DNA of 64,000 bases from a virus: positions 40,449-104,448 of IMG/VR virus record IMGVR_UViG_3300046474_000239. The stretch is one strand, 5' to 3'. Shown here piece after piece: positions 309 to 61,107 of the stretch. The notes under the pieces are model-generated. The model searched no databases, had not been told where the DNA came from, and saw only the letters and a program-made list of their open reading frames with translations. Numbering within the stretch: position 1 is the stretch's first letter; every line of letters starts with the position of its first letter. The translations under genes were made by a program, and so were the position numbers.

Positions 309-322
309 TGCAATCAATTGCA
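309..322. repeat. 14-bp motif copy 1 (TGCAATCAATTGCA)
   Basis: exact copy, intergenic. Confidence 0.95.
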
Positions 323-370
323 CCAACTAACGGGCGGGATATGCCGCCCTTCTTATATAGGGGCTACATC

Positions 371-592
371 ATGACTATTCATATCGTTAAGCGCAGGGCT
401 ACATGCGGGAAGAGTACTAAGCGCGTACGGGGTAGAGAGTTCGCTAGCATGCGCACACACGCAAACACACAAGTAAGGCGAGTACTCATTGCATACTCCC
501 CTTATGACAAGATGCGGGTATGTCGGGGCGGGGACTACCAGACAAGGTACGCCATATACAGAATGTCGAATAACCAACTAATGCAGTACTAA
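371..592 (+). CDS. hypothetical basic protein
   Basis: ATG at 371 within ORF 308..592; Arg/Lys rich. Confidence 0.45.
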   Translation: MTIHIVKRRATCGKSTKRVRGREFASMRTHANTQVRRVLIAYSPYDKMRVCRGGDYQTRYAIYRMSNNQLMQY

Positions 593-602
593 GGGGTAGA
601 CC

Positions 603-785
603 ATGACCTATGTATTCAGAAGGCTAGACGGGCGGTTAGATTACATATACCGCAAAGGCCTACCATTCAGAGAGCGCACAGCACCATCAGTAGTCCGTCG
701 CCTTACACGCATCACCCGCCGTATGCCTATCCACTACAGAAGCATACGCGAAGCAAAGGCACGCATTGATCAGGCGTGCAATTGA
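603..785 (+). CDS. hypothetical Arg-rich protein
   Basis: AGGGG RBS; stop codon lies inside motif copy 2. Confidence 0.5.
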   Translation: MTYVFRRLDGRLDYIYRKGLPFRERTAPSVVRRLTRITRRMPIHYRSIREAKARIDQACN

Positions 786-790
786 TTGCA
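777..790. repeat. 14-bp motif copy 2 (TGCAATTGATTGCA)
   Basis: exact copy, reverse orientation. Confidence 0.95.
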
Positions 791-1063: not shown

Positions 1064-1077
1064 TGCAATTGATTGCA
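1064..1077. repeat. 14-bp motif copy 3 (TGCAATTGATTGCA)
   Basis: exact copy, upstream of TATAAT at 1126. Confidence 0.95.
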
Positions 1078-1388: not shown

Positions 1389-1392
1389 CGCT

Positions 1393-5448: not shown

Positions 5449-6222
5449 ATGGAAGAGTTTTTCAATGCCCGGCCGGGCCTCGCCATTGCCTCAGTATTGT
5501 TCTGGGGCATGGCCATTTTCGTGGTCCTGGGGATGCTCGACGGGCCTGTCCGCAGATGGCGAAGAAGTATGATGTCAAGGTTCTGGGCCTGGAACGACCG
5601 CAAGTACGGACCTAAGGGCGGCTTGACTGTTGATCCGCCACCTCCGGCCAATACAGTCCCGTTGATTAGGCAGCGTCCCAATATGCGGGGTCCGGGCGGC
5701 CAGGCAACCCTCCACCTACAGGATCGCCGAGTCCAAAGGGTGCCCAGGTTCTTGGGCGTCGACATCCCGCGAGGGGTCGTGATGGAGACAAACCCCGGCA
5801 TGCCTAACAGATACGGGCTCAGGTTCCCCAGGGGCTTCTATTTGCCGCGAGAAGACCAGCGCCGTCTACAGACCCGAGCTGGTAACGCCTTCCACTTCGA
5901 GGTCTTCACCGACCAGCGCACCCAGAGCACCTTTATCAACGTCACCGAGCAACTGTCTCTGGAGTTCATGGCCGACTCCCAGGAAGGGCGCGAATACCTG
6001 TCTGAAATCGTTGCCGAGGTGTGCAGCCTGTATGCGGACTGGGCCATCGGCAAGGCAAACGCCCAGGTGGCCGACAAGGTTGAGAAGGCTGAGAAGCCCG
6101 TGGTAGAGCCTTCGCGGAGTGTTCGCATGCGCCAGCGGCGGGCGGCCAGTGTAGAGAGACAGAGTAGTAACAAAAGCGATACAGTTGACCCATCAAAACA
6201 GGAGAAACCTGATGAACAATGA
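5449..6222 (+). CDS. N-terminally membrane-anchored hypothetical protein
   Basis: AAGGAG RBS; one TM; Arg-rich C-terminal region. Confidence 0.6.
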   Translation: MEEFFNARPGLAIASVLFWGMAIFVVLGMLDGPVRRWRRSMMSRFWAWNDRKYGPKGGLTVDPPPPANTVPLIRQRPNMRGPGGQATLHLQDRRVQRVPRFLGVDIPRGVVMETNPGMPNRYGLRFPRGFYLPREDQRRLQTRAGNAFHFEVFTDQRTQSTFINVTEQLSLEFMADSQEGREYLSEIVAEVCSLYADWAIGKANAQVADKVEKAEKPVVEPSRSVRMRQRRAASVERQSSNKSDTVDPSKQEKPDEQ

Positions 6223-6823
6223 CAGCAAACCCTTGTACCTCAGTGACGTGCAATCAATTGCATTGGACGTTTTGCAAGCCCAAGTCGGCGCCTGGTTGCT
6301 ACAGATGTGGGGTCCGCTTTCGGCGGGCGATGTGCCTGAGCGTGTTCAGCGCTTCCAGGAAGAAGCCAATGAGCTGTGCCAGGCCATGGGCCTCACCCGC
6401 AAAGAGGCGCACATGCTGGTCGAATACACCTGGGACCGCCCGGTAGGTGAGCCGCACCAGGAAGTGGGCGGAGCGATGACCACCCTTGCCGCCCTTTGCT
6501 TCGCGTCAGGCCTGGACCTGCAAGCCGCCACGGCAGCAGAGTTCAACCGCTGCAACGGCCCGGCCGTGATGCAACGCATCCGCGAGAAGCAAGCACTCAA
6601 GCCGAAAAGCAGCCCGCTCCCAGGGCCTACCGAGATCGACTGGGCGGCAGAGCGAGAGCTGTTCCACCAGCGCCACCCGATGCCTGAAGGCGTAATCCTA
6701 TACAACAGCCCCAGCCTGCGTAATGCCGCGTACGGCTACGAGCACGTACGCTGTATTTCCGCAGCGATCAGCCACGACAAGCTGTGGTTCGGGTGGCGGT
6801 CCTGCGTGGAAGCTCACCAGTAA
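6212..6823 (+). CDS. MazG-like NTP pyrophosphohydrolase-fold protein
   Basis: ERVQRFQEEANELCQA...QEVGGAMTTLAALC pattern; AGGAG RBS. Confidence 0.55.
   Translation: MNNDSKPLYLSDVQSIALDVLQAQVGAWLLQMWGPLSAGDVPERVQRFQEEANELCQAMGLTRKEAHMLVEYTWDRPVGEPHQEVGGAMTTLAALCFASGLDLQAATAAEFNRCNGPAVMQRIREKQALKPKSSPLPGPTEIDWAAERELFHQRHPMPEGVILYNSPSLRNAAYGYEHVRCISAAISHDKLWFGWRSCVEAHQ
6249..6262. repeat. 14-bp motif copy 4 (TGCAATCAATTGCA)
   Basis: exact, intragenic (VQSIA). Confidence 0.95.
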
Positions 6824-7692: not shown

Positions 7693-7911
7693 ATGCCGTA
7701 TCTTCCTGCAATACTTGGATTGATTCTTTTATCCCTTCTTGCAACATGTTCGACGGCCACACTCAACCTACCCTCTATCCAGATCACCACCCGCCAGTGG
7801 GACCATGTTTTCAACGTAGCGCTGGTCTTGGGGCTCCTTGCCCTGGCCGGACTTGCCACTATGTTCTACCTGGACTGCATCGCGACCCCTCGCGTGTACC
7901 GATACCTCTAA
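7693..7911 (+). CDS. small membrane protein
   Basis: GAGG RBS; two hydrophobic segments. Confidence 0.55.
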   Translation: MPYLPAILGLILLSLLATCSTATLNLPSIQITTRQWDHVFNVALVLGLLALAGLATMFYLDCIATPRVYRYL

Positions 7912-7919
7912 GGAGACTC

Positions 7920-8165
7920 ATGATGTACGCACTAGCCCTACTCCTGCTCAGCGCGGGCGCCGGACTCTTACCGGCCCTGATCTACGTCATCGCTCAGATG
8001 AACCGGATCCGCGCACTGTACGGCGCTCCGCGCCAGGACAACGCCCCGTACTACAAGGCGTCGGAAAAGGCACTTCGCCGCTTCTACGTTATCTGGGTAG
8101 TCGCGACGATCCTGCTACTCCTCTGCCTGCCCAGCTCGGGCGCCTTCCCTGATACCCGCTACTAA
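7920..8165 (+). CDS. small membrane protein (2 TM)
   Basis: AAGGAG RBS. Confidence 0.6.
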   Translation: MMYALALLLLSAGAGLLPALIYVIAQMNRIRALYGAPRQDNAPYYKASEKALRRFYVIWVVATILLLLCLPSSGAFPDTRY

Positions 8166-8176
8166 GGAGAGCCATC

Positions 8177-8790: not shown

Positions 8791-8804
8791 TGCAATCAAT
8801 TGCA
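8791..8804. repeat. 14-bp motif copy 5 (TGCAATCAATTGCA)
   Basis: exact, immediately before GGAG RBS of 8816. Confidence 0.95.
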
Positions 8805-11822: not shown

Positions 11823-11836
11823 TGCAATTGATTGCA
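11823..11836. repeat. 14-bp motif copy 6 (TGCAATTGATTGCA)
   Basis: exact, intergenic, just upstream of promoter. Confidence 0.95.
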
Positions 11837-14231: not shown

Positions 14232-14549
14232 ATGCAAGCGATTAAGCGAGCGTTGCAGCGTCTCAGGCTGGCCCTGGCGCCGGTCAAGCCTGTGAACAAG
14301 GTGGGCAAGCTGGGCCTGTGGGAGCGGGGCGAGGTGATGGACTACGGGGACTGCTTCGTAGCCCACATCACGGTCAATGGCACCCCAGGGGCGGTTATGG
14401 TGCGAGCCCCCACCAAGGCCTCAGCCGCAGCCCGCCGCGACCTGATAGTCCAGACGATGATGCAGGAATCCCGCGAAGAGGCGGCGGTGCAATTGATTGC
14501 ACGAACCTCCGGCGACGAGACCGTAAACCTGGTGAAGTCAAGTCAGTGA
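14232..14549 (+). CDS. hypothetical protein
   Basis: packed ORF; carries motif copy 7. Confidence 0.55.
   Translation: MQAIKRALQRLRLALAPVKPVNKVGKLGLWERGEVMDYGDCFVAHITVNGTPGAVMVRAPTKASAAARRDLIVQTMMQESREEAAVQLIARTSGDETVNLVKSSQ
14488..14501. repeat. 14-bp motif copy 7 (TGCAATTGATTGCA)
   Basis: exact, intragenic (VQLIA). Confidence 0.95.
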
Positions 14550-20359: not shown

Positions 20360-20373
20360 TGCAATTGATTGCA
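20360..20373. repeat. 14-bp motif copy 8 (TGCAATTGATTGCA)
   Basis: exact, between dut stop and terminator. Confidence 0.95.
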
Positions 20374-23031: not shown

Positions 23032-24454
23032 ACGAATCAAGCGGAGCGCCACGGTGGAAGGAAACCTCGTCACCGTCGATGACCCAGCGTTCATTACCCT
23101 GGTGAAGAAACCAGCCAACCAAAGAGCTTTCGGGATTCTCCGATCCGCCCAAGAGGACGACAACGTGAGCAAACCAGCATCCAAGCGCGTACCGCGCACC
23201 CGGCGTAGCGAAGGCGCCGACAACCTCGTCCGCATCAGCCTCCCCGGTTCCCTGGATGAAGCTGGCGTGGCTGAGACTCTGGCCTCCTACGGCCTGGCCA
23301 ACTTCACCGTTACCCGCAGCGAGGATGACACCTCCTGGGTAGCCCAGAACCCAGGTGCAATCAATTGCACCGACGTGACCACGGTCAACCTGGCTGACGG
23401 CATCGTGGCGCAGATCAAGCGCACCGAAGAGACCGAACCAACCGAAGGTAAGACCAAGCTGACCGTCGTGACTCTGGAATTCGATGCAGGTTCCTTCCCT
23501 GACGCAGCCTCCTGCGCAGAATGGTGCCAGCGGAATTCTGTTGACTTCGATGAAAAAGCTCTGAACAATCCGTCTGGCAATCTTGTGTTGCAGCGGGCGG
23601 AGGTCCCTGAAGGCGAAGAAGTTCGCTTGATGGAGTTGGAAGGCGGTGTCACGGCGACGATCATTCGTTCGCAAGTTGGCGACATCCCGGACGGCTTCAT
23701 CGCAGTGATCAACGAGTATGCGTACGGTGGTTGGGGTTGGGGCCAACTGGACTTCAACGCGGCGATGGCAGATGAGTCAGTAACAGAAGCGCTGAACGAC
23801 GGGATGTGGATGCTGTCCGATTTGTTCCGCCAAATCCTGTTCTATAGCGAACTGCCGGTCGATGTGAAGAAGGACTTGGTAACCCGCGCCTGCGGTCAGT
23901 TTGCTGAATACGCGAACGGGCTGCTGGACTCCCTCCCACGCCAGCTACTGGTATCTGTTGCATCAATCCAGCGAAAAGAGAAGGAGCACGAAATGACTAC
24001 CGCAGCGAAGAAAGACGAAAAGCCGCTGGATGTGCAGCGCAGCGAACCAGTCGCCGCCCCTGCCCCTGGCACTCCTGAGTTCATCACCGCCGTCGCCGAA
24101 ACTGTTGCTACCGTTCTCGCCCAGCGCGAAGAAGCGGCCAAGAAAGCCGACGACGACCGCATCAAGCGCGAAGAAGACGAAGCAGCCGACAAGCTGAAAG
24201 GCGAAGAAGCTGTCATCGCCCGCCGCGCCGAGATCACCGAAGCGGTGACCCTGGCTACTGCTCCACTGATGGAAAAGATCACCAAGCTGGAAGGCACCAC
24301 CATCCTGCGCGGTGAAGGTGGCGAGCAACTCCCTGTTAAGCAGGAAGTGAAGCGCGGCACTGGCGACCTGTTCAAAGGCGTGTTTGGCACGGTCACCCGT
24401 ACCGAGCGTGCTGCTGACCCTGAAGATGGTGCCGAGACTGGCGCTGACCAATAA
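23021..24454 (+). CDS. head maturation/scaffold protein
   Basis: between protease and MCP; N-terminal ITLVKKPAN; charged helical C-terminus; internal RBS+ATG at 23993. Confidence 0.7.
   Translation: MRSKRIKRSATVEGNLVTVDDPAFITLVKKPANQRAFGILRSAQEDDNVSKPASKRVPRTRRSEGADNLVRISLPGSLDEAGVAETLASYGLANFTVTRSEDDTSWVAQNPGAINCTDVTTVNLADGIVAQIKRTEETEPTEGKTKLTVVTLEFDAGSFPDAASCAEWCQRNSVDFDEKALNNPSGNLVLQRAEVPEGEEVRLMELEGGVTATIIRSQVGDIPDGFIAVINEYAYGGWGWGQLDFNAAMADESVTEALNDGMWMLSDLFRQILFYSELPVDVKKDLVTRACGQFAEYANGLLDSLPRQLLVSVASIQRKEKEHEMTTAAKKDEKPLDVQRSEPVAAPAPGTPEFITAVAETVATVLAQREEAAKKADDDRIKREEDEAADKLKGEEAVIARRAEITEAVTLATAPLMEKITKLEGTTILRGEGGEQLPVKQEVKRGTGDLFKGVFGTVTRTERAADPEDGAETGADQ
23356..23369. repeat. 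14-bp motif copy 9 (TGCAATCAATTGCA)
   Basis: exact, intragenic (GAINC). Confidence 0.95.
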
Positions 24455-26212: not shown

Positions 26213-26848
26213 ATGTACATTCTCAATAACACCGAACTTACAAAGGGCACCTCGGCTGGTTCTAGTAACGCCTGCGGCGCGGGTACACCGGAACAGTTCG
26301 AGGACCTCCAGCGCACCATCCGTACCCGTGTGGAAGAAGCTCTCGGCATTGAAACCCTTGACCGGGTGGATTGCCGGGACACTTTCCAGATAACGGGCTG
26401 TGGCGCACAGGAATGCTTGCTGCGCACTACAAACGCATTCCTTACCATCGACACACCTGTGTTTCTCGACAGCGCGGGGGAAGTTCTGGAAATCACCCCT
26501 TCGCTAGTGGATCGGAAGTATGGCGTGATCACCGTAACGCTTGACCCTGGCACGTACACCGTCACGTACACCAGCGGGTTCCTCGCGGAGCCGGGATCGA
26601 ACGTCTACAAGTTTTTGCCGGACTGGGTGAAATCAATTGCACTGGCCACCGTGATCATGTGGCGGCGGTCGACCAACCTGGCGGCCACTGACAAGAACTC
26701 CTCGCACCAGGACTTGAACGCCTCGATTGTCCGGGAGCTGAATGCCCGGATCTTCAACCGCTACGACAGGCCTCGCTTCATGCACGAGTTCCCTGTGAAG
26801 TCGGAGCACCGGGCGGCTGGCACTACCGGAGACTGGAACGAATGGTAG
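26213..26848 (+). CDS. head-tail adaptor (putative)
   Basis: position; VTYTSGF....LPDWVK pattern typical of connector proteins. Confidence 0.6.
   Translation: MYILNNTELTKGTSAGSSNACGAGTPEQFEDLQRTIRTRVEEALGIETLDRVDCRDTFQITGCGAQECLLRTTNAFLTIDTPVFLDSAGEVLEITPSLVDRKYGVITVTLDPGTYTVTYTSGFLAEPGSNVYKFLPDWVKSIALATVIMWRRSTNLAATDKNSSHQDLNASIVRELNARIFNRYDRPRFMHEFPVKSEHRAAGTTGDWNEW
26628..26641. repeat. 14-bp motif variant copy 10 (TGAAATCAATTGCA)
   Basis: 1 mismatch, intragenic (VKSIA). Confidence 0.8.
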
Positions 26849-28716: not shown

Positions 28717-29073
28717 ATGCAATCAATTGCACCGACGATCAAACTCGAACTCCTGGCCGACGACATCAGTATCAAAGGCGTCAGGAAGAACCCAGGCGAT
28801 GTAGTAGAGGTCTCGCGAAGCGCAGCCAAGTCTTTGTTGGCCGCAAAGAAGGCGGTCATCTGGACCACCGAGCGGGCAGCCAAAAGCGCAGCAACGGCAC
28901 CAGAAGCGGGAGGTGAGGCAGAGGCCGAGCCAGACCACGAGCACCAAGAACCTCTGGACGAGGCGGGCGGTGCCGATTACAGTGCCGAAGTACCCGCAGT
29001 TCAAGAACCTGTCGAGGCGGAGAGTGTGGCTCCGGCAGGACGAGCAGCCAAACGCATCCAACGGACCAAATAG
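28717..29073 (+). CDS. hypothetical protein
   Basis: GGAGG RBS; start codon overlaps motif copy 11. Confidence 0.6.
   Translation: MQSIAPTIKLELLADDISIKGVRKNPGDVVEVSRSAAKSLLAAKKAVIWTTERAAKSAATAPEAGGEAEAEPDHEHQEPLDEAGGADYSAEVPAVQEPVEAESVAPAGRAAKRIQRTK
28718..28731. repeat. 14-bp motif copy 11 (TGCAATCAATTGCA)
   Basis: exact, overlaps ATG (MQSIA). Confidence 0.95.
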
Positions 29074-35171: not shown

Positions 35172-37691
35172 ATGACCATCAAGCTTTGGCCGTTCCGCCC
35201 AGACTGGGAAGGCGGCGTTCTGGAGAGACTGGAATGGCTGACGGATGTCATGGCAAGCACAAAGGGGGCGGAGCAACGCCGCCCCCAGCGGCTCACGCCA
35301 CGCAAGACCTTGGAGGTGACCTTCCTGCCGCACGGTCGCGGGCGGTCTGTCTTCGACCTCTACGTCATGCAGAAGGGCAATGACGATTGGTACATCCCAC
35401 TCTGGTATGACGTGGGTGTCCTTCGACAGCCTGTCGCGATAGACGCCGGGGTGGTCATGACCGACGTAACCTTCCGCGAGTTCACGTTAAACGGCCTGGC
35501 GGTCATCCGCACGGCGCCGTCTGCCGACGACGAAAGCACGACGTTCACTTACGAGATCGTGAAGGTCCTGGGGCGCAGCTCAGGCAGTCTTCTGGTACAG
35601 CGTGCCCAGGAAGGTACGACAGCGCGAGTCTGGGGAAAGGGGTCTGAGATCTACCCGCTCCGCAAGGCAAGATTCACGGACCAACCGAAGGCCGACATCG
35701 TGGCCGCGTCGGTACACTCCACGCAGATGTCTTTTACGATCACCGAGCCGAACGAGTGGCAAGGCGTAAGCCAAACCGCAGGGTACGGGGCGGCGTATAG
35801 CCAGAGCTGGGCGATGAGCGCTGACGTGTCACCCCTTACGCCGATGGCCAACCTGGGGCGTGTACGGGCGCCAGAAAACCTACCTCTGTTTGAGGGGTTC
35901 CGCGTACTCACCATCAAGCCGGACTACGCACAAGACATGTCCATCGCCTACGACCGGGTGCTGAACGAGCTGGATAACGGCAACGGCATTCCAAGGTCCT
36001 CGGATACCCTGGGCTTCGCCGTGCCTACCCAGCGACACACCTGGTTCATCCAAGGCCGAGAAGACGCCGCCAACCTCCGCACGCTGTTGTACTGGCTGCG
36101 CGGCAAGGTGCGTCCGTTGTGGGTGCCTACGTTCAACGACGACGTGCAATTGATTGCACCGGCCGCCTCGGGTGCGATGTATGTGGACATTCAGGACATT
36201 GGCTTCGTCGAGCTGGGCGGAGGCATTGGTCGTCAGGTACTGGCGATCAACCTCAACGACAACTCCTGGATCTTCCGCAGGGTAGTAAGCGCGGTGGTCG
36301 GGGCTGGCTTCGAGCGACTTGAATTGTCGGAGGCCCTGCCGCAGGCGCTGAACCTGGAGGACATTTATAAGATCAGCTTCATGGCGGTAAACCGACTGGC
36401 GCAGGACACCGTAGAGATCAACCACGTCACGGACCTCGAAGGTCTGACCAAGGTAGTGACCACGTTCCGAGCTTCGCCCGACTTGCGCCAGTATCTGCCG
36501 TGGACCGCCAAGATCCCGTCCGCGCCTGCATCCTGCCCTAAGACGTGCGAAGGCATGACGCGGGTGGACGACTTCATGAACTTCGGTCTCCCCAACTTCT
36601 CGTGGTCCGCAGAAGCCTGCCTGACGACGGCCAAGGGTGCGTACATGCGCTACAAGCTGGCGTACTCGCAGACCTTCGTCTCCTGGTACGACACGGAGAT
36701 CACGGACAACGCCCTCTACCTGGCGGCGGACTTGGCGAACCGGGACTACTGGACGGCGCATGCCGGGTGGGTCTACGACCAAACAGCGGACAGTGCCTTT
36801 TACGAAGCGCAGAAAGTGTTGTACTGGTCCCATACCAGAGTGGAGGGGCAGCAGTGGATCTCCGATAACTTGCCGCTTGGCGTTGCCGTGTACGCGGCCA
36901 GTCTCAGCGATGCTGCCTTCCAGGAGTACTACGTGAAGCAGCGGGCGCAGAAGGACTTCGAGGTCTACACCCACGACACCGAGTTGCTCATGGCCTGCCA
37001 CCCTCGCCGCTGGCTGCCTATGGCCAAGATGGAGACAGTGCCCGCCACCTGCGAAGGCGGCATGCTGGGGACCTTCTGTATGCAGTCCATGTGGTCGGTA
37101 GAGGAAGGGAGGACCTACCCCAACCAAACGCGAGGGGCGGCCACGCTGTATACAGCCGGGGTGGTCGAGAGACTCCAGGGAGTAGACCCAGGCACCTGGC
37201 CTACATCGTTAGCCTCGCAGCAAGGTATCTATTACCGCATGGTGGGCGCACCGCTCAGCACTAACGGGGTGTACCGCAACTGCGGGTGCATACCTCTACA
37301 GTTCGAGGAGAACCACCAGCGCCTGTCTGCCCCTACAAGTGGTATTGAGGACCCGACCTGGGTGCAGTGGTTTCACTACTCCCAGATAGCGCTGCTTACT
37401 CCAGACGCTTGGCCGACCGAGATCCGGGTGCTAGTGTACGACTCTCTTTCCAGTGTTCTTTTGCGCACCATGGACATCACCATCGAGAACTTCGAGGTGA
37501 CCGCCAAGGCGGACGAGTACCACGCCCTGTCTGGGGATGATGATTACACCGCAAACCTCGTCGTCTTCCGGGAGATGTACAACCGAGAAGCGGATGGACA
37601 GACCACCTTCCACCCAGACCCGTGGGATGGTGCCTGGAACCTGGTTCCGGTGGCGGTCGACGGGATCAAAGTAGAAATTTACGCACGATAG
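35172..37691 (+). CDS. distal tail protein-like with long C-terminal extension
   Basis: WPFRPDWEGGVLERLEWLTDV..., LRG...PLWVPTF; follows TMP. Confidence 0.7.
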   Translation: MTIKLWPFRPDWEGGVLERLEWLTDVMASTKGAEQRRPQRLTPRKTLEVTFLPHGRGRSVFDLYVMQKGNDDWYIPLWYDVGVLRQPVAIDAGVVMTDVTFREFTLNGLAVIRTAPSADDESTTFTYEIVKVLGRSSGSLLVQRAQEGTTARVWGKGSEIYPLRKARFTDQPKADIVAASVHSTQMSFTITEPNEWQGVSQTAGYGAAYSQSWAMSADVSPLTPMANLGRVRAPENLPLFEGFRVLTIKPDYAQDMSIAYDRVLNELDNGNGIPRSSDTLGFAVPTQRHTWFIQGREDAANLRTLLYWLRGKVRPLWVPTFNDDVQLIAPAASGAMYVDIQDIGFVELGGGIGRQVLAINLNDNSWIFRRVVSAVVGAGFERLELSEALPQALNLEDIYKISFMAVNRLAQDTVEINHVTDLEGLTKVVTTFRASPDLRQYLPWTAKIPSAPASCPKTCEGMTRVDDFMNFGLPNFSWSAEACLTTAKGAYMRYKLAYSQTFVSWYDTEITDNALYLAADLANRDYWTAHAGWVYDQTADSAFYEAQKVLYWSHTRVEGQQWISDNLPLGVAVYAASLSDAAFQEYYVKQRAQKDFEVYTHDTELLMACHPRRWLPMAKMETVPATCEGGMLGTFCMQSMWSVEEGRTYPNQTRGAATLYTAGVVERLQGVDPGTWPTSLASQQGIYYRMVGAPLSTNGVYRNCGCIPLQFEENHQRLSAPTSGIEDPTWVQWFHYSQIALLTPDAWPTEIRVLVYDSLSSVLLRTMDITIENFEVTAKADEYHALSGDDDYTANLVVFREMYNREADGQTTFHPDPWDGAWNLVPVAVDGIKVEIYAR
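36145..36158. repeat. 14-bp motif copy 12 (TGCAATTGATTGCA)
   Basis: exact, intragenic (VQLIA). Confidence 0.95.
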
Positions 37692-37702
37692 GAGCGGTAG
37701 CT

Positions 37703-38999: not shown

Positions 39000-41355
39000 T
39001 AAAAGTACAACCATAGGCTTCCGATACTACTTCACCATGGTGATGGGTCTGGGCCGTGGCCCGATTAATGAGCTGGTAGAGATCCGCGTAGGTGGCAAGC
39101 TTGCGTGGTACGGCAGCGCGGCAACGTCCGGCAACTACGGAATCGACGCAGGTAACCTGTTCAACGGCGACAAGGGCGAGGGCGGCATTGAGGGCTCGTT
39201 CGACCTCTGCATGGGGGAGAAGACCCAGGGGCAGAACGCTCGCGTCGTGGGCATGCGCGGGTCTCTGGTATCCGCCATGCGCGGCGTGTGCGTCATGGTG
39301 TACGACGGACTCATCTGCTCGATGAACCCTTACCCCAAAGAGTGGAAGATGCGCGTACGCCGGACCACAGCCGGGTGGGACCAAGACCCTTGGTATCCAG
39401 AGCGGGCGGCCATTTACTTCCTGGACAACGTGACCGCCCTGGATGCGCCCACGGTCGACGTTGGGTTCATCGGTGACCCTGCTGACTACACACCGGCCGA
39501 GTGGCAGTTGCTCTATTACGCCAAACTCGCAGAGCTGCAAGCTGACGCCCAGTTGGGCCGCCGCCTGGTTTGCTCGATGAACCCCGCGCACATGCTTATG
39601 GAGATCGCCACAAACCGGGAGTGGGGTCGTGGCATGCCGATGGATCAGATAGACCTGAACCTGTACAAGGTCGCGGCGGACAATCTGTACTGCGAGGGCT
39701 TCGGCATGTGCCTGCGCTGGAACCGGCAGAGCAGCCTGGACGACCTGGTCGCAGAGATCATCAGCACCATCGGTGGCATGCAGTACGTTAGCCGCACCAC
39801 TGGGCTCCTCACGCTGCGCCTGCTCCGCAACGACTACGTCATAGAAGACCTGCCCGTGTTTGCCCGCGACGGCCGAGGCATCCTGAGTATCGAATCCGAA
39901 GAGTCGTCTGGGTCTGAAGCCGGGTTCAACGAAGTAGTGGTCAAGTACCGCTCCGCGCTGAACGGGGACGTGGCGTCTGTCCGCTACCAGAACCTGGGCA
40001 GCATCATGTCGGACGGCGGGGTGAACTCCACCACCACCGAGTACCTAGGCATCGCAGACCGTAACATCGCTGTCCGGGTGGCTGCGCGAGACGTGAAGTC
40101 CAACACGGGGGATCTGCGGAGACTGAAGCTGACCCTAGACCGTCGTGGCTACCCGCTGGAGCCAGGTGTGCCGTTCATCATCTCGGACCCAGAGAGCGGT
40201 ATCGAGTCGATGATCATGCGGTCCGTTACCATCACCAACGAGGACTTCGTCAGCGGCACCATCACGCTGTCCTGCCTGACTGATGTATTCGGCCTGCCGG
40301 ACACCGCGTACGTGGGCGAGGAAGCTGCGCCGCCTGACTTACCGAGTGCAGCCCCTGCGCTGCCCGTGGACCAGCGGCTGCTCGAAGTACCGTACCGCTC
40401 TCTCTACCAGAACACCGACAAGGCCAACTTCGACCTGCTCACCGATGACGTGGCGTTCCTCGGGGCGGCGGCTGTGCGTCCTAACTTCAACAACCCGAAC
40501 TATGACCTGATCTACAAGTCGCACTCAGCGACTGAGTACCTGCCAGAAGATGACGTACCAGGAGAATGGTGCGCGTCGGTCTTGTTGCCTCGCACCCTGT
40601 CACCGCTGGACGACCTGATCACCTTCACCACAGTAGACCTGAGTGCGGTGACCGTAGGGCTGATGGCGCTGATCGACGACGAAGAGGTCCAGGTGACAGC
40701 GATGGACACGGTAGCCAAGACCCTGACGATTGCCAGGGGTTGTCTAGACACCGTACCGACCGAGCACGCACGCCTGACCCGCGTGTGGTTCTACGAGACT
40801 GGCGAGACGTTCTCAACCAAAGAGTTCACGCTGGGCGAGCAGGTGGACGGCAAGGTCCTGTCCAACGCCGCAGCAGGGGTACTCAATCCAACCCTGGCCC
40901 AGGAGATGACATTGACCATGGTTGGGCGGTTCGGCAGGCCGTACCCTCCAGGCAAAGTGCAGATAGAAGGGGAGGACATTTTCCTCGTGCAATCAATTGC
41001 ATCGGGAGACACACTGACTTGGGCGCGGAGGAACAGGATCACCCAGGCTGACGTAGTGCAGGACTTCCACGTAGCCGACATCACGCCCGAGGCAGGCCAG
41101 ACCACTACCGTCCGCACCTACCGCCAGGACACCAACGCGCTCTTGGAGGAGTACACCGGGATCACAGGCACAAGCCAGGTGCTGACTCCAGGCTACGTCG
41201 GGGTCATTCGCGTGGAGGTCTCCTCCGTGCGGGGCGGCCTGGAGAGCCACCAGAAGTATGCAGTAGTGCTTGGCAGCGACACCCCTTACATGACTACCGT
41301 GACCGGCGAGTTCATGACCACCGTATCCGGCTACTACCTGACTGAAGGAGCATAA
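38989..41355 (+). CDS. central tail tip / host-specificity (gpJ-like) protein
   Basis: MGGSKSTTIGFRYY, GEGGIEG, MNPAH.L.E..TN.EWGRG, RGC.DTVP..H. Confidence 0.8.
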   Translation: MGGSKSTTIGFRYYFTMVMGLGRGPINELVEIRVGGKLAWYGSAATSGNYGIDAGNLFNGDKGEGGIEGSFDLCMGEKTQGQNARVVGMRGSLVSAMRGVCVMVYDGLICSMNPYPKEWKMRVRRTTAGWDQDPWYPERAAIYFLDNVTALDAPTVDVGFIGDPADYTPAEWQLLYYAKLAELQADAQLGRRLVCSMNPAHMLMEIATNREWGRGMPMDQIDLNLYKVAADNLYCEGFGMCLRWNRQSSLDDLVAEIISTIGGMQYVSRTTGLLTLRLLRNDYVIEDLPVFARDGRGILSIESEESSGSEAGFNEVVVKYRSALNGDVASVRYQNLGSIMSDGGVNSTTTEYLGIADRNIAVRVAARDVKSNTGDLRRLKLTLDRRGYPLEPGVPFIISDPESGIESMIMRSVTITNEDFVSGTITLSCLTDVFGLPDTAYVGEEAAPPDLPSAAPALPVDQRLLEVPYRSLYQNTDKANFDLLTDDVAFLGAAAVRPNFNNPNYDLIYKSHSATEYLPEDDVPGEWCASVLLPRTLSPLDDLITFTTVDLSAVTVGLMALIDDEEVQVTAMDTVAKTLTIARGCLDTVPTEHARLTRVWFYETGETFSTKEFTLGEQVDGKVLSNAAAGVLNPTLAQEMTLTMVGRFGRPYPPGKVQIEGEDIFLVQSIASGDTLTWARRNRITQADVVQDFHVADITPEAGQTTTVRTYRQDTNALLEEYTGITGTSQVLTPGYVGVIRVEVSSVRGGLESHQKYAVVLGSDTPYMTTVTGEFMTTVSGYYLTEGA
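40988..41001. repeat. 14-bp motif copy 13 (TGCAATCAATTGCA)
   Basis: exact, intragenic (VQSIA). Confidence 0.95.
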
Positions 41356-45379: not shown

Positions 45380-45393
45380 TGCAATTGATTGCA
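45380..45393. repeat. 14-bp motif copy 14 (TGCAATTGATTGCA)
   Basis: exact, upstream of lysis cassette. Confidence 0.95.
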
Positions 45394-46843: not shown

Positions 46844-46864
46844 AGCCCGCATAACGCGGGCTTT
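46844..46864 (+). terminator. hairpin / weak terminator abutting motif copy 15
   Basis: AGCCCGC-ATAAC-GCGGGCT-TT. Confidence 0.45.
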
Positions 46865-46877
46865 GCAATTGATTGCA
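46864..46877. repeat. 14-bp motif copy 15 (TGCAATTGATTGCA)
   Basis: exact, just before AGGAG RBS of endolysin. Confidence 0.95.
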
Positions 46878-48984: not shown

Positions 48985-48998
48985 TGCAATTGATTGCA
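48985..48998. repeat. 14-bp motif copy 16 (TGCAATTGATTGCA)
   Basis: exact, just downstream of predicted TSS (operator-like position). Confidence 0.95.
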
Positions 48999-50755: not shown

Positions 50756-50765
50756 GGAGAGCGCC

Positions 50766-51386: not shown

Positions 51387-51387
51387 C

Positions 51388-52371: not shown

Positions 52372-52378
52372 ATCAAAG

Positions 52379-52392
52379 TGCAATCAATTGCA
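52379..52392. repeat. 14-bp motif copy 17 (TGCAATCAATTGCA)
   Basis: exact, just before GGAGG RBS of the DUF1257 gene. Confidence 0.95.
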
Positions 52393-52404
52393 CGGGAGGA
52401 AGAT

Positions 52405-52848: not shown

Positions 52849-52891
52849 CAGTCGGTAGAAACTCCCCACCCACAACCAGTAGGACACCATC

Positions 52892-53092: not shown

Positions 53093-53096
53093 GGCC

Positions 53097-53964: not shown

Positions 53965-54495
53965 ATGAAAATAGTGCAACAGCCTTTGGTCCCACGGGAG
54001 GAGTTTGCGGAGGCCTACCGAAAGCTGAAGCTATGGTGGGGTATGCGCCATATCGAGGAAGAGGCGTACATCCTGGGAGTGCACCTGCTAGCCAAGATGG
54101 TTCGCCAGGACAGCAAGGAAATATCGGCCACCTGGGCAGAGTTCCAGAACGAGGTAGTCGTTCGCGGTGATGAGGTGGTAGCTGGACCACTGCATGGGGT
54201 GGAGTTCCTCTTTCTCGGGGCGGTGCAGCAACTACACACCACCGTGGGGATATTCAGCCACATCAGCCAGGAAGGCATGGAGCGAAGCCTGTTAGAAGCC
54301 AGAGAGCACAACTTCATCAGCCAGCACTTCACCAAGTCGCCGGGCCAGGAAGAAGACCTGCTAGGGCCACACACCCCTATGCTGTTCGTCTTGGTGCCTT
54401 GGGCGGGGTACGACCCAGACAAGACCTGGAGCACCTACGCAGACGGGGGGCATGTACGCAAACTGCCCGCGTGGATCAACAAAACAAAAGGGTGA
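53965..54495 (+). CDS. hypothetical protein
   Basis: packed ORF in replication operon. Confidence 0.55.
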   Translation: MKIVQQPLVPREEFAEAYRKLKLWWGMRHIEEEAYILGVHLLAKMVRQDSKEISATWAEFQNEVVVRGDEVVAGPLHGVEFLFLGAVQQLHTTVGIFSHISQEGMERSLLEAREHNFISQHFTKSPGQEEDLLGPHTPMLFVLVPWAGYDPDKTWSTYADGGHVRKLPAWINKTKG

Positions 54496-54499
54496 TTCC

Positions 54500-55849
54500 A
54501 TGCAACACACTCACGCGCACGTCGCGTTGAGCGCACTACGGCAAAGCCTGACCCAGAAGGACGACCTCTACTTTGTTGCATGGGTAAAAGTGAACTCCGT
54601 TTTAGGGAAGTTTTGGCCAGAGCGGTTCAGCGCAAGTGAGTATCTTGTTCTACTTTTCATAGTGAGCAGGACACTGATGTTCAGGAAGAAGGCGGAAGTA
54701 ATAACCAAAAAACACTTCGCAGAGGGTGTAACGTCCAGCAGAAGTGTCACCTGTTCTGGGTGTGGGGTAGGAGAAACAGCGCTGAAGAAGGCCTTAAAGA
54801 GGTTGTGCGATGAAGATTTCCTTCACGTTCACAGCTTTAAGGAGGGTAATACAGAGACCGTACCAAGGATTTACGAGCTGAATTTCGTCAAAATCCTAGA
54901 CGGATACGACACGGACGAGGTGCACAACATGCTCAAACGAGGAAAATCCGCCGTACAAAACGACGCCAAAGAGGACGAAGATGACCCGTTTTTAGGGGGG
55001 TTACATGTAAGGGGGGAGGGGGGTCGCAATCGTGGGTACATAACAGAGGTATTACATACCTCTAATAAAGCATTAATAACTAATAAGTCCGCCGAGGCGG
55101 AGACGGGAGGAGAAGCAGTACTACGGGTGGGTAAACGTAGACGTACAGATGCAACTGATTGCACGGACAAACCCAAGCCTATCTCTGGTAATGCCAGGGA
55201 GCGGTTGGCACAGATGCAGGCTATGGCCGCAGGTAACCGGGCGAAGCGTCTTCACTCTGTTCGTGGGCTACCCGAGCGTCGATGGGACATCAAGGACCTA
55301 CAAGCGCTACTCGACGAAGCACGTACTCAGTGTGGCCTATCAGTACCGCGTGTGATGGCTACCGCGAAAGGCGCGGGCGTTCTGTTCAAGCGGATGAAAG
55401 CCGCAGAGATCAACGACTCCCTGGAGTTCTTCACCTGGGCCTTCACGCACTGGTCCACCGTGGCGAACGCCAACCGCCGCAGCAAGGCACGGCAGCTCAA
55501 GGATACGAAGACGGTGAACAGCGAGATGTCGCTTATCCCCAACTTCGCAGAACTGGCCTACCGCTTCCCTTACATCCTGGCCTTCTTCAACGACCGTAAG
55601 TTCGCTGAGGTGCAGGAAGAGGAGAAAGTCGAACGCCGGGTGCGGGCGGATGATCGCCGACACGAGGAGCAGCAGGTGGCTATCGAGCGCCGTCGCCAGC
55701 TAACCCGTGAAGAGGACCTTCGCAAACGCGATGCAGAGCAAGAACAACAAACGCGGTTCGTAGAACGCCGCCGCCGACCGCGCCCCGTGGTCGATGACGA
55801 CGAAGAAGATCCGGTCCCACAATTCCGCGAAAGAGAATGGAGAGGTTGA
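54500..55849 (+). CDS. replication initiator-like protein (lambda O-like N-terminal wHTH)
   Basis: VLLFIVSRTL.FRKK...IT..HF, GVGETALKKALKRL..EDFL; upstream of DnaC-like and DnaB genes. Confidence 0.6.
   Translation: MQHTHAHVALSALRQSLTQKDDLYFVAWVKVNSVLGKFWPERFSASEYLVLLFIVSRTLMFRKKAEVITKKHFAEGVTSSRSVTCSGCGVGETALKKALKRLCDEDFLHVHSFKEGNTETVPRIYELNFVKILDGYDTDEVHNMLKRGKSAVQNDAKEDEDDPFLGGLHVRGEGGRNRGYITEVLHTSNKALITNKSAEAETGGEAVLRVGKRRRTDATDCTDKPKPISGNARERLAQMQAMAAGNRAKRLHSVRGLPERRWDIKDLQALLDEARTQCGLSVPRVMATAKGAGVLFKRMKAAEINDSLEFFTWAFTHWSTVANANRRSKARQLKDTKTVNSEMSLIPNFAELAYRFPYILAFFNDRKFAEVQEEEKVERRVRADDRRHEEQQVAIERRRQLTREEDLRKRDAEQEQQTRFVERRRRPRPVVDDDEEDPVPQFREREWRG
55150..55163. repeat. 14-bp motif variant copy 18 (TGCAACTGATTGCA)
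   Basis: 1 mismatch, intragenic (ATDC). Confidence 0.8.
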
Positions 55850-57686: not shown

Positions 57687-57696
57687 GGACGAACCC

Positions 57697-60588
57697 ATGC
57701 CATGCGACACAACGTTGTGCCAAGGCTGCCCCATCGAAGGACTTCATAGGCCGGTAGAACCGACCGGCTTCGAGGACGCACCCTACCTGATCGTCACGGA
57801 CACCCCGAGCAAGGCCGGTGCCAAGGAAGGGCGGTTGATCCCTCCTGCATCGAACCTGATGCTGTTCAAGAATCTGGACAAGGAGGGCTTTGACCCCGAC
57901 GACTTCCAGGTGCACCCGTTGTGCCTCTGCGCCTATGACCAGAACCTGTACAAGAACACCGAGAAGAAGAAAATCCACAAGCACTGCCGTGCTCACCTGG
58001 AAGACTTCATCGACGAGGTTCGGCCGCGTGCGATCCTGCCCCTGGGTGCCGAAGCCGCGAGCCAGGTATTCAACAAGTCCACTAAGATCACGCAGGTGCG
58101 CGGTCTGGGTCACATGTCCGAAGAGTTCGGCGTACCCATCTTCCCGCTGATGTCCCCAGGCCTCGCTGTGATGTACGCGCAGAACGAACCGGTACTCGCC
58201 GCTGACTGCCGATCCTTCGGCCGCTTGGCAGATGCGAACTTCGACGTGGACGCTGCGGATGACTTCGTGACCGGTGAATACATAGAGATCGACGACCTAC
58301 AATTCCTGATCGACATGAAGCCAGAGCTGGTCTCATTCGACACCGAGACCACAGGTCTGCGTTGGTATCAGCGCGGGGTCAACGTGCGGACCTACGTCGA
58401 GTCTAAGCACAAGGGCAAGCCATGGTTCCAACCGCGCTTCCAGATCCTCACCATGCAGTTCACCGTGGAATCCGGTAAGGCGTATGTCCTGGTCTGGGAC
58501 CACCCAGAACGCCCGATACCCGAGGACCGTAAGCCTCGCCTACGCAACCAACTCCGCAAGCTGCTCTGCAACCCAGAAACGCTGGTAATCGGTCAGGGGC
58601 TCAAGTTCGATAACGTAGGCCTTTGGATGTCCGAAGGGATCCGCTTCGAGATCGGCGGCGACACCGCAATGCTGTGCGCTATCCACGACGAAAACCTGCC
58701 AGAGAAGAACCTCGACATCCTGACCAAGCTCCACGTCCCAGAGATGGCCGGGTACGCCGACCGGTTCAACACGACAGTGGACAAGTCGCGGATGTGGGAA
58801 GTGCCGATCAAGACGATGATCCCGTACGGCGGTGGCGACACCGACGCGGCGTTCCGCGTGTACGAGAAACTCGAAGACCTGGTAGCGGCGGATGCCAAGA
58901 ACTGGAACCACTACTGCGAGGTATCCATCCCAGGGCTGAACGCGATGGCTGGCCTGGAGACGCGAGGCATGTACGTCGACCTGGACCACGCCCTGCCAGA
59001 GTTCCAGACCTTCCTGGAAGCGGAGGTACTCAAGCAGCGGGACGCATTGCTGGCCCAGGTGCACCGCGACATCAAGCTGAAACATATCGAGCTGAAGAAG
59101 GGCAACGTCGAAGAGGCGCTCAAGCTGTCGCGCCAGGACTTCCTCAAGGACATCCTGTTCTACCATCCGAAGGGTTTCCGTCTGAAGCCAAAGGTCTTCA
59201 CCAAGACTACCGAGAAGCTGCCCGACCACATGAAGGAACCTTCATGCAGCTCGAAGGACCACCTGCCGTACTTCTTCGAAGACTGCCCGTTCACTTTCGA
59301 GCTGGCTGAGTACGTGAAGGACGCCACCCTGCTCAACAACAACGTGGTCAACTTCCAAGAAAAGTTCGTGGTCGACGGCATGGTTCGCCCGACGTACTTC
59401 CTGGACAAGGCGGTCACCCGGCGCACCAGCTCGAAAGACCCGAACGGCCAGAACTTCCCGAAGCGCGGCAAGAAAGCAAAGATGTACCAGAAGAGCTTTG
59501 TTGCTCCCGAGGGCTGGGTCGTCATCCAGTGCGACTTATCGCAGGCTGAGTTGCGCATCGCCGGGGACATGGCGAACGACCAAGAGATCATCAGGATCTA
59601 CAACGCCAACGGCGACATCCACATCACCACCGCTTGCCTGGCACTCAACGTCACTGAAGCGCAGTTCAAGTTACTGCCTGAGAAGGAGCGGAAGGACTGG
59701 CGTCAGAAGGCCAAGGCGATCAACTTCGGATTCATCTACGGCATGTCCTGGCGGAAATTTATGGTCTACGCCAAAACTCAATATGGCGTGGAGTTCACCG
59801 AGAAAGAAGCCAAGGCGATCCGTACCAACTACTTCAAAAAGTACAAGGGCCTGGCACGCTGGCACGAAGTCGTCAAAGCGTACGTCGCACAGCACGGCCA
59901 GATTCGCTCCTACAGCGGCCTGCTGCGCCACCTGCCACAGGTCAACAGCGAGGAGGAGTACATCCAGGCGGAAGCCATGCGCCAAGGCATCAACAGCCCG
60001 GTGCAAGAGTTCGGCTCAACCCTGGGCGTGATCAGCCTCGGGCGGATGAACGAAGAGATCGACCCCGAGTACATGCGCGTCTTCGGCTTCATCCACGATG
60101 CGATCTACGCCTACGTCCGGGAGGAGCATGTCGACTGGGGTCTCAAGGTTCTGAAGAGCTACATGCAGGGCAACGACCTGGAGAAACTTTTCGGCCGTAA
60201 AATGAAAGTGCCGATCATCGCTGACGCGGCCTTCGGCTGGAACCAGGGTGAGCTGTTCGAGCTGGGTGACTTCGGCGGGTTCAGCCTGACCGAACCGTAC
60301 GACTTCACGCAGATCAAAGACAAGGACGGCAAGCAGTTGGTAAACCTGCCCCGGCAGACCACTCCGCCTAACCGTGGACGCCTGCGGGGCTCGCCCTACA
60401 CCCTGGCTACAGACCTCGAAGATGAGACCGTGCAGCACATTGCCAGGCTTCGTCGGACAGGGGTGGGAGTTGCCAGTCGGCCAGGGGGCCGGACCACTAG
60501 CGCCAAGCGGATTGTCAGGCCTCCGCGTGTCGAGGAAGAGGCGCCATCGCCGACCCCAAGGCTCAGGCGCACTAGGGCTTCGGTGTAG
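57697..60588 (+). CDS. polA: family A DNA polymerase with N-terminal UDG-family-4-like domain and 3'-5' exonuclease
   Basis: CxxC Fe-S-type start, FDTETTG (ExoI), RTSSKDPNGQN, DLSQAELR (A), RQKAKAINFGFIYG (B), IHDA (C). Confidence 0.92.
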   Translation: MPCDTTLCQGCPIEGLHRPVEPTGFEDAPYLIVTDTPSKAGAKEGRLIPPASNLMLFKNLDKEGFDPDDFQVHPLCLCAYDQNLYKNTEKKKIHKHCRAHLEDFIDEVRPRAILPLGAEAASQVFNKSTKITQVRGLGHMSEEFGVPIFPLMSPGLAVMYAQNEPVLAADCRSFGRLADANFDVDAADDFVTGEYIEIDDLQFLIDMKPELVSFDTETTGLRWYQRGVNVRTYVESKHKGKPWFQPRFQILTMQFTVESGKAYVLVWDHPERPIPEDRKPRLRNQLRKLLCNPETLVIGQGLKFDNVGLWMSEGIRFEIGGDTAMLCAIHDENLPEKNLDILTKLHVPEMAGYADRFNTTVDKSRMWEVPIKTMIPYGGGDTDAAFRVYEKLEDLVAADAKNWNHYCEVSIPGLNAMAGLETRGMYVDLDHALPEFQTFLEAEVLKQRDALLAQVHRDIKLKHIELKKGNVEEALKLSRQDFLKDILFYHPKGFRLKPKVFTKTTEKLPDHMKEPSCSSKDHLPYFFEDCPFTFELAEYVKDATLLNNNVVNFQEKFVVDGMVRPTYFLDKAVTRRTSSKDPNGQNFPKRGKKAKMYQKSFVAPEGWVVIQCDLSQAELRIAGDMANDQEIIRIYNANGDIHITTACLALNVTEAQFKLLPEKERKDWRQKAKAINFGFIYGMSWRKFMVYAKTQYGVEFTEKEAKAIRTNYFKKYKGLARWHEVVKAYVAQHGQIRSYSGLLRHLPQVNSEEEYIQAEAMRQGINSPVQEFGSTLGVISLGRMNEEIDPEYMRVFGFIHDAIYAYVREEHVDWGLKVLKSYMQGNDLEKLFGRKMKVPIIADAAFGWNQGELFELGDFGGFSLTEPYDFTQIKDKDGKQLVNLPRQTTPPNRGRLRGSPYTLATDLEDETVQHIARLRRTGVGVASRPGGRTTSAKRIVRPPRVEEEAPSPTPRLRRTRASV

Positions 60589-60645
60589 CTAGGAGGGGGC
60601 GGGAACGCCCCTTAAACTTCAGGAATCAACACAAGGAATTTCATC

Positions 60646-61107
60646 ATGTCCGAACGCATAATCCGCCGTACCAGAGCCGTTGCTCGCGGGGTCCTCCGTC
60701 AAGAGAACACCCACATCAAAGACATCGACGAGCGCATGCAATCAATTGCACGGAAGCGTCAGGAGATGCTCGCGGCGGCTCAAGAGATCAGTGAGCTGGA
60801 GAAGGAAGTCGAGGAGCTGATGAAGGCTGGCAAGCTCGAAGAGCACCAGTACCTGGACCTCCTGGCCCACTACGTCGAGACCAAGACCAACGCCAGCACC
60901 TTCGTCGATCCGAAAGTCCTGTACGCCAAGCTGAAAAACAAGGACGACTTCTTCAGTGTGGTCAAGGTCCAGGTCGGTGAGCTGAAGAACGTCATGACCG
61001 AGAAGGAGATCGAGCAGGTCGGCAAGGTCACCCCTGGCAAGGTCACCGGCAAGAAGTTCGAGATCATCGTCCCCAAAGACAAGGCAGGGCGCGGGAGGGG
61101 TAAATGA
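60646..61107 (+). CDS. coiled-coil hypothetical protein (possibly Gam/gp157-like)
   Basis: AAGGA RBS; helical N-terminal half, Lys-rich C-terminal half. Confidence 0.55.
   Translation: MSERIIRRTRAVARGVLRQENTHIKDIDERMQSIARKRQEMLAAAQEISELEKEVEELMKAGKLEEHQYLDLLAHYVETKTNASTFVDPKVLYAKLKNKDDFFSVVKVQVGELKNVMTEKEIEQVGKVTPGKVTGKKFEIIVPKDKAGRGRGK
60737..60750. repeat. 14-bp motif copy 19 (TGCAATCAATTGCA)
   Basis: exact, intragenic (MQSIA). Confidence 0.95.

Follow-up and report, generated by a model that had tools for sequence, protein, structure and literature searches.

A genome-wide array of short DNA dyads in a clade of large siphophages and its possible reading by a dimeric protein

The stretch of DNA considered here, a window of 64,000 nt, corresponds to bases 40449–104448 of the complete 104,448-bp IMG/VR virus record IMGVR_UViG_3300046474_000239 (58.8% GC; 127-bp terminal repeat). 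Essentially every gene of this phage lies on the + strand, and a 14-bp quasi-palindrome, TGCAAT-CA/TG-ATTGCA, is dispersed among and within the genes. The window holds 17 exact and two one-mismatch copies (26628 with a TGAAAT half; 55150 with the center CTGA), and all 19 coordinates listed in an earlier reading of the window (the original prediction) were reproduced, TGCAATCAATTGCA or its reverse complement being present at each of the 17 exact positions. No match was obtained in 100 dinucleotide-preserving shuffles of the window. Across the full record there are 31 exact 14-mers, of which 18 show the CA form and 13 the TG form on the coding strand, giving about one copy of the palindrome per 3 kb of genome. 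The adjoining bases extend the motif to a 16-bp dyad, [G]TGCAAT-CA/TG-ATTGCA[C], with G in 21, A in 10 and T in one of the copies at position -1, and C in 28 and T in four at position +1. The purine and pyrimidine flanks of the original prediction are thereby borne out (G or A in 31 of 32, C or T in 32 of 32), as is the 7.4-kb interval between 28718 and 36145 as the largest gap in the window.

The copies are neither placed nor spaced at random. About 75% are intergenic (23 of 33 in one tally, 24 of 32 in another) in a genome that is only about 10% non-coding, and many of them start 0–7 nt past the upstream stop codon and finish 11–15 nt before the next ATG. Intragenic copies sit in long genes, where no junction is at hand. 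The coefficient of variation of the gaps between copies is 0.47–0.75 in nine of the ten genomes analyzed, as opposed to about 0.96 for random placement (p from <0.0002 to 0.024), and it lay below a null sampled from gene junctions in all five genomes to which that null was applied; RcMenchie, with a value of 0.88, shows no significant departure. The orientation of the center, 18:13 in this genome, is random along the genome (runs tests in five genomes, not significant) and flips at orthologous sites, in agreement with the original prediction that the sites are unoriented and in this differ from stoperators.

The architecture extends well beyond this genome. Its general form is [G/T]TGCAA-N4-TTGCA[C/A], where the spacer always has four bases and other lengths are essentially absent. 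An exact scan of IMG/VR revealed further contigs of about 93–100 kb with many copies, and whole-record counts at no more than one mismatch reach 21–52 in these relatives vs. 0 for the pattern read backwards; over all IMG/VR relatives, the range is 16–52 per genome. Sites of this form are found in G001–G005, SM1/PaMx31, RHph_I4, L338C, HJ05, RcZahn, DLP3, V-YDF132 and RcMenchie, with 0–2 hits for the backwards-pattern controls. Judged by portal protein, at 64% identity, the closest cultured relatives are SM1 and PaMx31, two Samunavirus phages of Pseudomonas aeruginosa, which carry 30 copies of TGCAA[A/G]CG[C/T]TTGCA. The Rhizobium phages RHph_I4 and vB_RleS_L338C hold 45 and 47 copies, respectively, of TGCAAC-NN-GTTGCA with a free center, and Aeromonas phage HJ05 holds 16 of TGCAAC-YR-GTTGCA. 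Among Rhodobacter phages, RcZahn has nine copies with TGCAAT arms and a CA or TA center, and RcMenchie about 27 of the form TGCAATCGATTGCA. Vibrio phage V-YDF132 has 25 copies of TGCAATTAATTGCA, and the 31 copies in Stenotrophomonas phage DLP3 use a 14-mer identical to that of the window. In an uncultured sister lineage (L170, L178, L181, L167, L168) both arms have switched symmetrically, to TGAAAT-NN-ATTTCA.

The asymmetric center is a lineage dialect and not a defining feature of the site. That it is never CG or TA, as originally stated, is correct for this genome but fails in the relatives, where the center is CG (RcMenchie, SM1, G005, HJ05), TA (V-YDF132, RcZahn) or any dinucleotide (the Rhizobium phages); a pyrimidine-purine step is kept in every dialect except that of Rhizobium. 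The motif is at background in the distant terminase relatives Maribacter phage Colly_1, Rhizobium phage RHph_TM39 and Gordonia phage Camerico, and 80 evenly sampled Alphaproteobacteria hold 0–2 copies each. Neither a lack of conservation in relatives nor an equal frequency in unrelated genomes, two of the outcomes that would have spoken against the original prediction, was thus observed. Taken together, the sequence comparisons indicate that the array is an ancestral, selected trait of a large clade of 80–110 kb siphophages of Proteobacteria.

Selection acts on the sites themselves. Where the flanking genes are orthologous, most sites have a counterpart, written in the local dialect, at the equivalent junction in the relative G003, at a median protein identity of 58%, and in SM1, at 44%. 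For five of the intragenic copies, G003 has the motif at codons that are exactly homologous, and third-codon positions within intragenic motifs are identical in 23 of 25 cases vs. a fraction of 0.45–0.54 elsewhere in those genes. Protein sequence can also give way: in the 466-aa head gene, a change from Asn to Ala writes the SM1 center, and the gene at 60646–61107 pays for a flip of its center from CA to TG with a Ser/Leu change. There is a real array, and it is under selection; for its intragenic sites, the codon comparisons show that what is selected is the nucleotide sequence. Exact copies within one genome, found in either orientation and mainly between genes, could also be the product of a selfish mini-palindrome that multiplies by insertion and serves no phage function. 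It would not account for sites at orthologous junctions and homologous codons at 44–58% protein identity, each in the local dialect, nor for the even spacing, and neither flanking duplications nor a larger repeat unit were found. Given the positional conservation, the selfish reading is close to refuted.

The geometry of the motif and its register with promoters bear on whether it is read as duplex DNA. The fixed four-base spacer places the centers of the half-sites 10 bp apart. Positions 6 and 9 stay complementary (45/45, 16/16 and 31/32) although they flank just two bases, and pairing across a 2-nt loop is impossible. Beyond the ±1 positions the flanks show no covariation, and in this genome pairing there is rarer than expected by chance. 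About a third of the copies in four lineages end 5–12 nt upstream of consensus -35 boxes: the motif precedes TTGACA at this distance at 11 of 32 strong promoters in G002 (13 within 20 nt), in 11 of 35 cases in RHph_I4 and at two sites in HJ05, and in V-YDF132 it does so at 10 sites, all at 7–10 nt. The center of these promoter-upstream copies lies near -50, upstream of the transcription start. Such a fixed register with promoter elements argues for a DNA-bound factor. The motif is not itself a sigma-70 promoter, as it holds no -35/-10 pair and the promoters are separate from it, with the motif upstream of them in relatives and downstream here; in this phage, two conserved cases (48985 and 45380) put it at about +2 to +25 of a promoter. 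RHph_I4 (L152–L155) and V-YDF132 (L256–L260) also possess families of 10–15 near-identical early-type promoters (TTGACAAAGGATCGGTT... and TTTGACAAAAC..., respectively) with the motif 7–9 nt upstream, and the copies of the RHph_I4 family favor a TT center on the coding strand.

These features are most readily explained if the array consists of double-stranded DNA sites for a putative dimeric regulator or organizer, an interpretation that we regard as moderately probable. A sequence-specific homodimer would bind the 16-bp dyad, with one monomer on each TGCAA(T) half-site, a helical turn apart, and a flexible pyrimidine-purine step would be required at the dyad center. Sites and reader would have drifted together into the lineage dialects. 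The bound protein would serve as a global regulator or organizer of the phage chromosome: a promoter-abutting site would leave its promoter repressed or insulated, and elsewhere the protein might achieve genome-wide coverage, e.g., by bridging, or by spreading or sliding from the sites, as KorB does from OB on plasmid RK2. Dyad sites for a dimeric protein across the genome were the core of the original prediction. That core is supported, the array being real, non-random, conserved, evenly spaced in nine of ten genomes and rare elsewhere, with dimer sites as its best reading; the binding proteins it named are not.

Among those proteins, the winged helix-turn-helix (wHTH) protein (53614) and the O-like protein (54452) are confined, as is the product of 53965, to the subclade of this genome (G000), G003 and SM1, whereas the motif arms are clade-wide, and the products of 1656 and 2209 and the SNase-like protein of 20463 are not among the proteins present in at least four of the ten motif-bearing genomes. 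Iterative searches over these ten genomes yielded an inventory of shared proteins, namely an SF2 helicase, g3 (129 aa), RecA, two resolvases, a Cas4-like exonuclease, g8 (489 aa), DnaB, PolA and a primase, as well as the portal, the capsid protein, an AAA+ ATPase and also a ParB_N protein of 225–312 aa. Both motif-free relatives lack g3, g8, resolvase, exonuclease, ATPase and the ParB_N protein. No universal phage protein with a recognizable sequence-specific DNA-binding domain emerged, and no repressor was recognized among the proteins scanned. For g3, found in nine of ten other carriers, the model shows four long strands and a helix with no match in the Protein Data Bank, and the Atlas assigns no family to the universal g8; modeling and searches yielded neither a fold nor a family for the two. 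An open reading frame (ORF) for the ParB_N protein is present in 10 of 10 motif-bearing genomes and 0 of 2 motif-free relatives and adjoins the terminase genes where checked. In this phage it is located beside the terminase at genome positions 7854–8627, outside the window. The SM1 orthologues are gp051 for the ParB-like protein, gp045 for g3 and gp050 for g8, and gp052 of SM1 is a ParB-methyltransferase. Its ParB_N match of 25.5 bits falls just below the cut-off of 26.3, it also matches PHROG ParB-like families, and a Foldseek search with the model returned the N-domains of ParB, Noc and KorB. Phage loci with the ParB_N domain only contain one motif copy in 830 kb, so the domain alone is not predictive of the array. 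The ParB-domain protein beside the terminase is a weak candidate, if the only one with a family precedent.

In a more specific proposal, the palindromes would be parS-like loading sites for ParB-domain proteins with a GHTR signature, which would load on phage DNA only, spread or slide from there and give the whole chromosome a self mark that modification, packaging or transcription control could use. In one case, the GHTR ParB-domain protein is a fusion with a methyltransferase and has a carboxy-SAM synthase as its partner. We consider this version rather unlikely.

Several other candidate systems were tried and rejected. A promoter of a phage RNA polymerase was discarded, as no RNA polymerase gene was found among the large ORFs, and TCTCTATAGGG repeats are confined to one region and absent from the relatives. 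In that region, a gene-poor stretch at genome positions 37098–37925 (window -3350 to -2523; L131:1095–1939), TCTCTATAGGG(A) occurs five times, and its core CTATAGGGAG is identical to the initiation region of the T7 promoter. By reasoning only, none of the established consensus sequences for IHF, sigma-54, CRP/FNR, PurR and similar proteins fits all dialects.

A dimeric reader of duplex DNA has to be weighed against a number of observations that do not favor it. The shared-protein search in the ten motif-bearing genomes singled out no binding protein. The ParB-like protein has an invariant GHTR where canonical CTP-clamp ParB, KorB and Noc proteins have GERR, and its model is confident for the N-domain only, with residues 140–205 poorly modeled and no clear helix-turn-helix (HTH). 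Furthermore, the ParB-like protein, g3, g5 and g8 were not detected in three cellular genomes of Reyranella (G007–G009) in which the motif is dispersed. The promoter-upstream layout is nearly absent from the phage's own subclade (G000, G003, SM1) and from DLP3. Finally, 47 of 99 intergenic copies in five genomes start 0–8 nt past a stop codon, also where the intergenic region is long, and a symmetric DNA site does not obviously call for such a polarity. In intergenic regions of at least 80 nt, 44% of the copies lie in the first 15%. This hugging of stop codons is only partly explained by compact intergenic designs of the order site, promoter and leader, or site and Shine-Dalgarno sequence, and it counts against the dimer reading.

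The same polarity is what would be expected of an RNA-level signal, in which a transcribed 6-bp stem with a tetraloop, placed after stops or before ribosome-binding sites, would affect mRNA stability, segmental decay or translation. As all genes are on the + strand, every copy would be transcribed, and besides the copies that follow stops, 26 of the 99 end no more than 20 nt from the next start (8791, 46864 and 52379 exemplify these placements). The predicted hairpin has a ΔG of about -6.3 kcal/mol with z-scores of -2.2 to -4.6, and the symmetric arm change from TGCAA to TGAAA keeps the pairing. However, the third of the copies that lies upstream of -35 boxes in four lineages is outside the transcript of that promoter, the complementarity of positions 6 and 9 cannot stem from a 2-nt loop, and helix-extending covariation in the flanks is lacking. 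The arm sequence itself, beyond its pairing, is invariant across hosts, and the orientation of the loop is random and flips at orthologous sites. No U-tract follows the motif, no Rfam family matches it, and it accompanies intrinsic terminators about as often as expected by chance, so that with its 6-bp stem and uncorrelated flanks it resembles neither an intrinsic terminator nor a REP-like hairpin. An RNA signal appears unlikely on balance.

A hairpin or cruciform in single-stranded DNA could likewise act as a signal for replication, recombination or packaging, through priming, helicase loading, junction resolution or terminase handling. Apart from the portal, capsid and AAA+ ATPase, the universal proteins do constitute a replication and recombination module plus the ParB-domain protein by the terminase, and an even spacing of 2–3 kb suits a process running along the whole chromosome. 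Stable extrusion would take a stem of more than 6 bp, though, the center has no strand or replichore polarity, the register with -35 boxes has no place in such a model, and comparison with an 87%-identical relative revealed no recombination breakpoints at the sites. The last point also disposes of recombination hot spots, the 87–90% identical relative being collinear without breakpoints at four shared sites. We deem a single-stranded signal improbable.

The protein that reads the sites might also be provided by the host, the phages having copied the site of a cellular DNA-binding protein, either a nucleoid protein or a transcription factor, so as to recruit or titrate it. Four Reyranella genomes (G006–G009, e.g., L397–L416) contain 9–32 dispersed chromosomal copies of the matching extended consensus, (CG)TGCAAT-YR-ATTGCA(CG), with a CG center in one species and mostly CA/TG in the others. 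In three of them the phage proteins were undetected, as described above, and in G006 a 2-kb contig gave a single ParB-like match restricted to the N-domain; the chromosomal copies keep the host-factor reading alive and weaken the ParB lead. Two phages of a single R. capsulatus strain have the half-site TGCAAT in common, and the universal phage proteins offer no recognizable sequence-specific DNA-binding domain. Moreover, AphA, a PadR-family wHTH dimer of Vibrio cholerae, binds ATGCAA-N4-TTGCAT (PMC6855506). Its identical core, TGCAA-N4-TTGCA, is read on the duplex by a dimeric winged-helix protein, which makes the motif a workable protein target; AphA, however, is a host regulator with single promoter sites in place of an evenly spaced array, the flanks here are G/T...C/A, and the phage encodes no PadR domain (PF03551). 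Against a host factor stand the 0–2 copies in 80 Alphaproteobacteria, the dialects that differ among close relatives (including arm changes at 58% ParB identity) and the centers that differ between phages of one host strain (CG vs. CA/TA). In addition, the hosts span Rhizobium to Vibrio, and the T...A flanks of V-YDF132 do not fit the A...T of the AphA consensus. A host factor is thus given a low probability, similar to that of the RNA signal. An ArsR-type gene beside one Reyranella site was set aside, as it shows no similarity to the phage wHTH. Dense motif clusters are also present in the metagenome-assembled genome G013, on contigs C7 (101.9–160.5 kb, 12 copies) and C30 (13.9–60.7 kb, seven copies, with a g8 homologue encoded on the contig), and look like resident prophages of the array-bearing clade.

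If the sites are bound by a dimeric regulator or organizer, its closest mechanistic counterpart by analogy is KorB with its OB operators, and among described phenomena the dyad repeat of Cluster O mycobacteriophages comes nearest. KorB of the IncP plasmid RK2 is a global regulator of the ParB superfamily (PMC11790492). It resembles the putative phage system in that short palindromes are dispersed over the replicon, some abutting promoters and some distant, with KorB working from all of them and silencing at a distance, and in that a ParB-domain protein is encoded by every motif-bearing phage checked. The array of the phage, a 16-bp dyad in 32 dispersed and evenly spread copies, is of the kind seen in ParB-parS, KorB-OB and Noc-NBS systems, whose dispersed palindromes measure 13–16 bp, and Noc and parS provide further precedents within the ParB family. 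It differs from OB in its 32 sites per 104 kb, or up to 52 per 98 kb in relatives, many of them intragenic, and the phage protein, in which GHTR replaces GERR, has no resolved HTH and no known KorA-like partner, its binding to the sites being putative. In Cluster O, a 17-bp dyad, TGTTCGG-N3-CCGAACA, is present in 34 copies in Corndog (PMC4351075). Both arrays have more than 30 copies with invariant arms, a variable center and no orientation bias, in intergenic as well as intragenic places, and function is unexplained in both. The Cluster O repeat has a 7-3-7 layout as opposed to 6-2-6 and is confined to one cluster of unrelated actinobacteriophages, whereas the present array, with its evolving dialects, is shared by phages of at least six proteobacterial host genera.

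Stoperators, the sites of L5 gp71-type immunity repressors in Cluster A mycobacteriophages, are asymmetric and oriented with transcription. They share with the present sites the dozens of near-exact copies in short intergenic gaps throughout the genome and the dialects that vary between related phages. The sites here are instead dyad-symmetric and unoriented, and sites that abut stop codons, if they were roadblocks, would halt RNA polymerase short of the stop codon. Among the relatives, DLP3 and DLP5 are temperate (PMC7326821, PMC5834331), DLP5 persisting as a phagemid (PMC5834331), and a prophage-silencing role is therefore possible in part of the clade. Operators of the LacI family follow the generic form TGnAAnCGnTTnCA with a central CpG, a 14-bp dyad that has TG, AA, TT and CA in matching positions and that the dialects of RcMenchie, SM1 and HJ05 fit exactly. 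The center is CA/TG here and free in Rhizobium phages, and the LacI domain (PF00356) is absent from the 10 motif-bearing genomes. The array was considered undescribed in the original prediction, and indeed, in the literature that could be searched, neither the 14-mers nor their generic forms turn up in such a setting; the publications that describe the genomes of DLP3 and the Rhodobacter phages do not mention the motif.

Should the dimer reading hold, a large and widespread phage clade would share an unrecognized genome-wide protein-DNA system whose sites constrain the choice of codons and, in places, the protein sequence itself. Candidates for therapy against Pseudomonas aeruginosa and Stenotrophomonas maltophilia belong to this clade, as do phages of Vibrio, Aeromonas, Rhizobium and Rhodobacter. 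The co-evolution of the dialects would offer a natural system for the joint change in specificity of a regulator and dozens of its sites. Several carriers are cultured, among them SM1 and PaMx31 on P. aeruginosa, DLP3 on S. maltophilia, V-YDF132 on V. harveyi and RcMenchie on R. capsulatus, which makes the question directly testable, and an answer would account for how these phages control their genes or handle their chromosome.

The individual copies of the window are listed in Table 1.

Table 1. Copies of the dyad motif in the 64,000-nt window, with their setting and their counterparts in relatives.
Position	Center or form	Setting	Counterpart in relatives
309..322	CA	intergenic, gene-poor region; terminator-like hairpin next, ~332–349	
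777..790	TG	intergenic, gene-poor region	
1064..1077	TG	intergenic, at end of ORF 848–1072	
6249..6262	CA	26 nt past stop of 5449–6222; in or at start of next called gene	
8791..8804	CA	abuts stop codon of 8656–8790; 11 nt to ATG 8816; Shine-Dalgarno sequence immediately after	
11823..11836	TG	3 nt past stop codon; promoter-like CTGACT-17-TATACT 15 nt downstream	G003 orthologous junction, flipped center
14488..14501	TG	within gene 14232–14549	homologous codons in G003
20360..20373	TG	3 nt past stop of 19481–20356, then intrinsic terminator	orthologous SM1 junction, in SM1 dialect
23356..23369	CA	within 466-aa head-module gene	homologous codons in G003 and SM1; SM1 Asn to Ala for own center
26628..26641	one mismatch, TGAAAT half-site	within gene 26213–26848	half-site is full dialect of some relatives
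28718..28731	CA	overlaps ATG of gene after major tail protein	equivalent place in G003 and SM1
36145..36158	TG	within 839-aa tail gene	identical codons in G003
40988..41001	CA	within 788-aa tail gene	no counterpart in G003 or SM1
45380..45393	TG	intergenic; ~+12 to +25 of promoter-like TTGCCA-17-TACGCT before next block	layout kept in G003 and SM1
46864..46877	TG	past terminator-like hairpin; 13 nt to ATG 46891	junction kept in G003 and SM1
48985..48998	TG	directly downstream of AAA+ ATPase operon promoter TTGATT-16-TATTAT	layout shared with G003 and SM1
52379..52392	CA	7 nt past stop codon; 12 nt to ATG 52405 (DUF1257 gene); inside AAA+ ATPase operon	
55150..55163	one mismatch, TGCAAC-TG-ATTGCA	within replication-protein-O-like ORF 54452–55849	
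60737..60750	CA	within gene 60646–61107	G003 at identical codons, center flipped (Ser to Leu)

Three further features of the region were recorded. Window positions 49058–53492 hold the AAA+ ATPase gene, which is present in 10 of 10 other motif-bearing genomes, followed by DUF1257 and DUF2997 genes. Upstream of the SNase-like and portal genes, a 27-nt non-coding block at 20418–20444 (AGTTTGTGTTGTAAGCTCGCGCCAGTT) is identical in SM1 despite a protein identity of about 44%, and may be a late-operon control element or an RNA. The 7-mer CGGGCGG, found for instance at window positions 345–351, occurs 115 times on the coding strand of this genome vs. eight times on the other strand, and 73 vs. 14 times in the relative G003, with no strand bias in SM1, G002 or G005; it is a strand-polar oligomer separate from the palindrome array.

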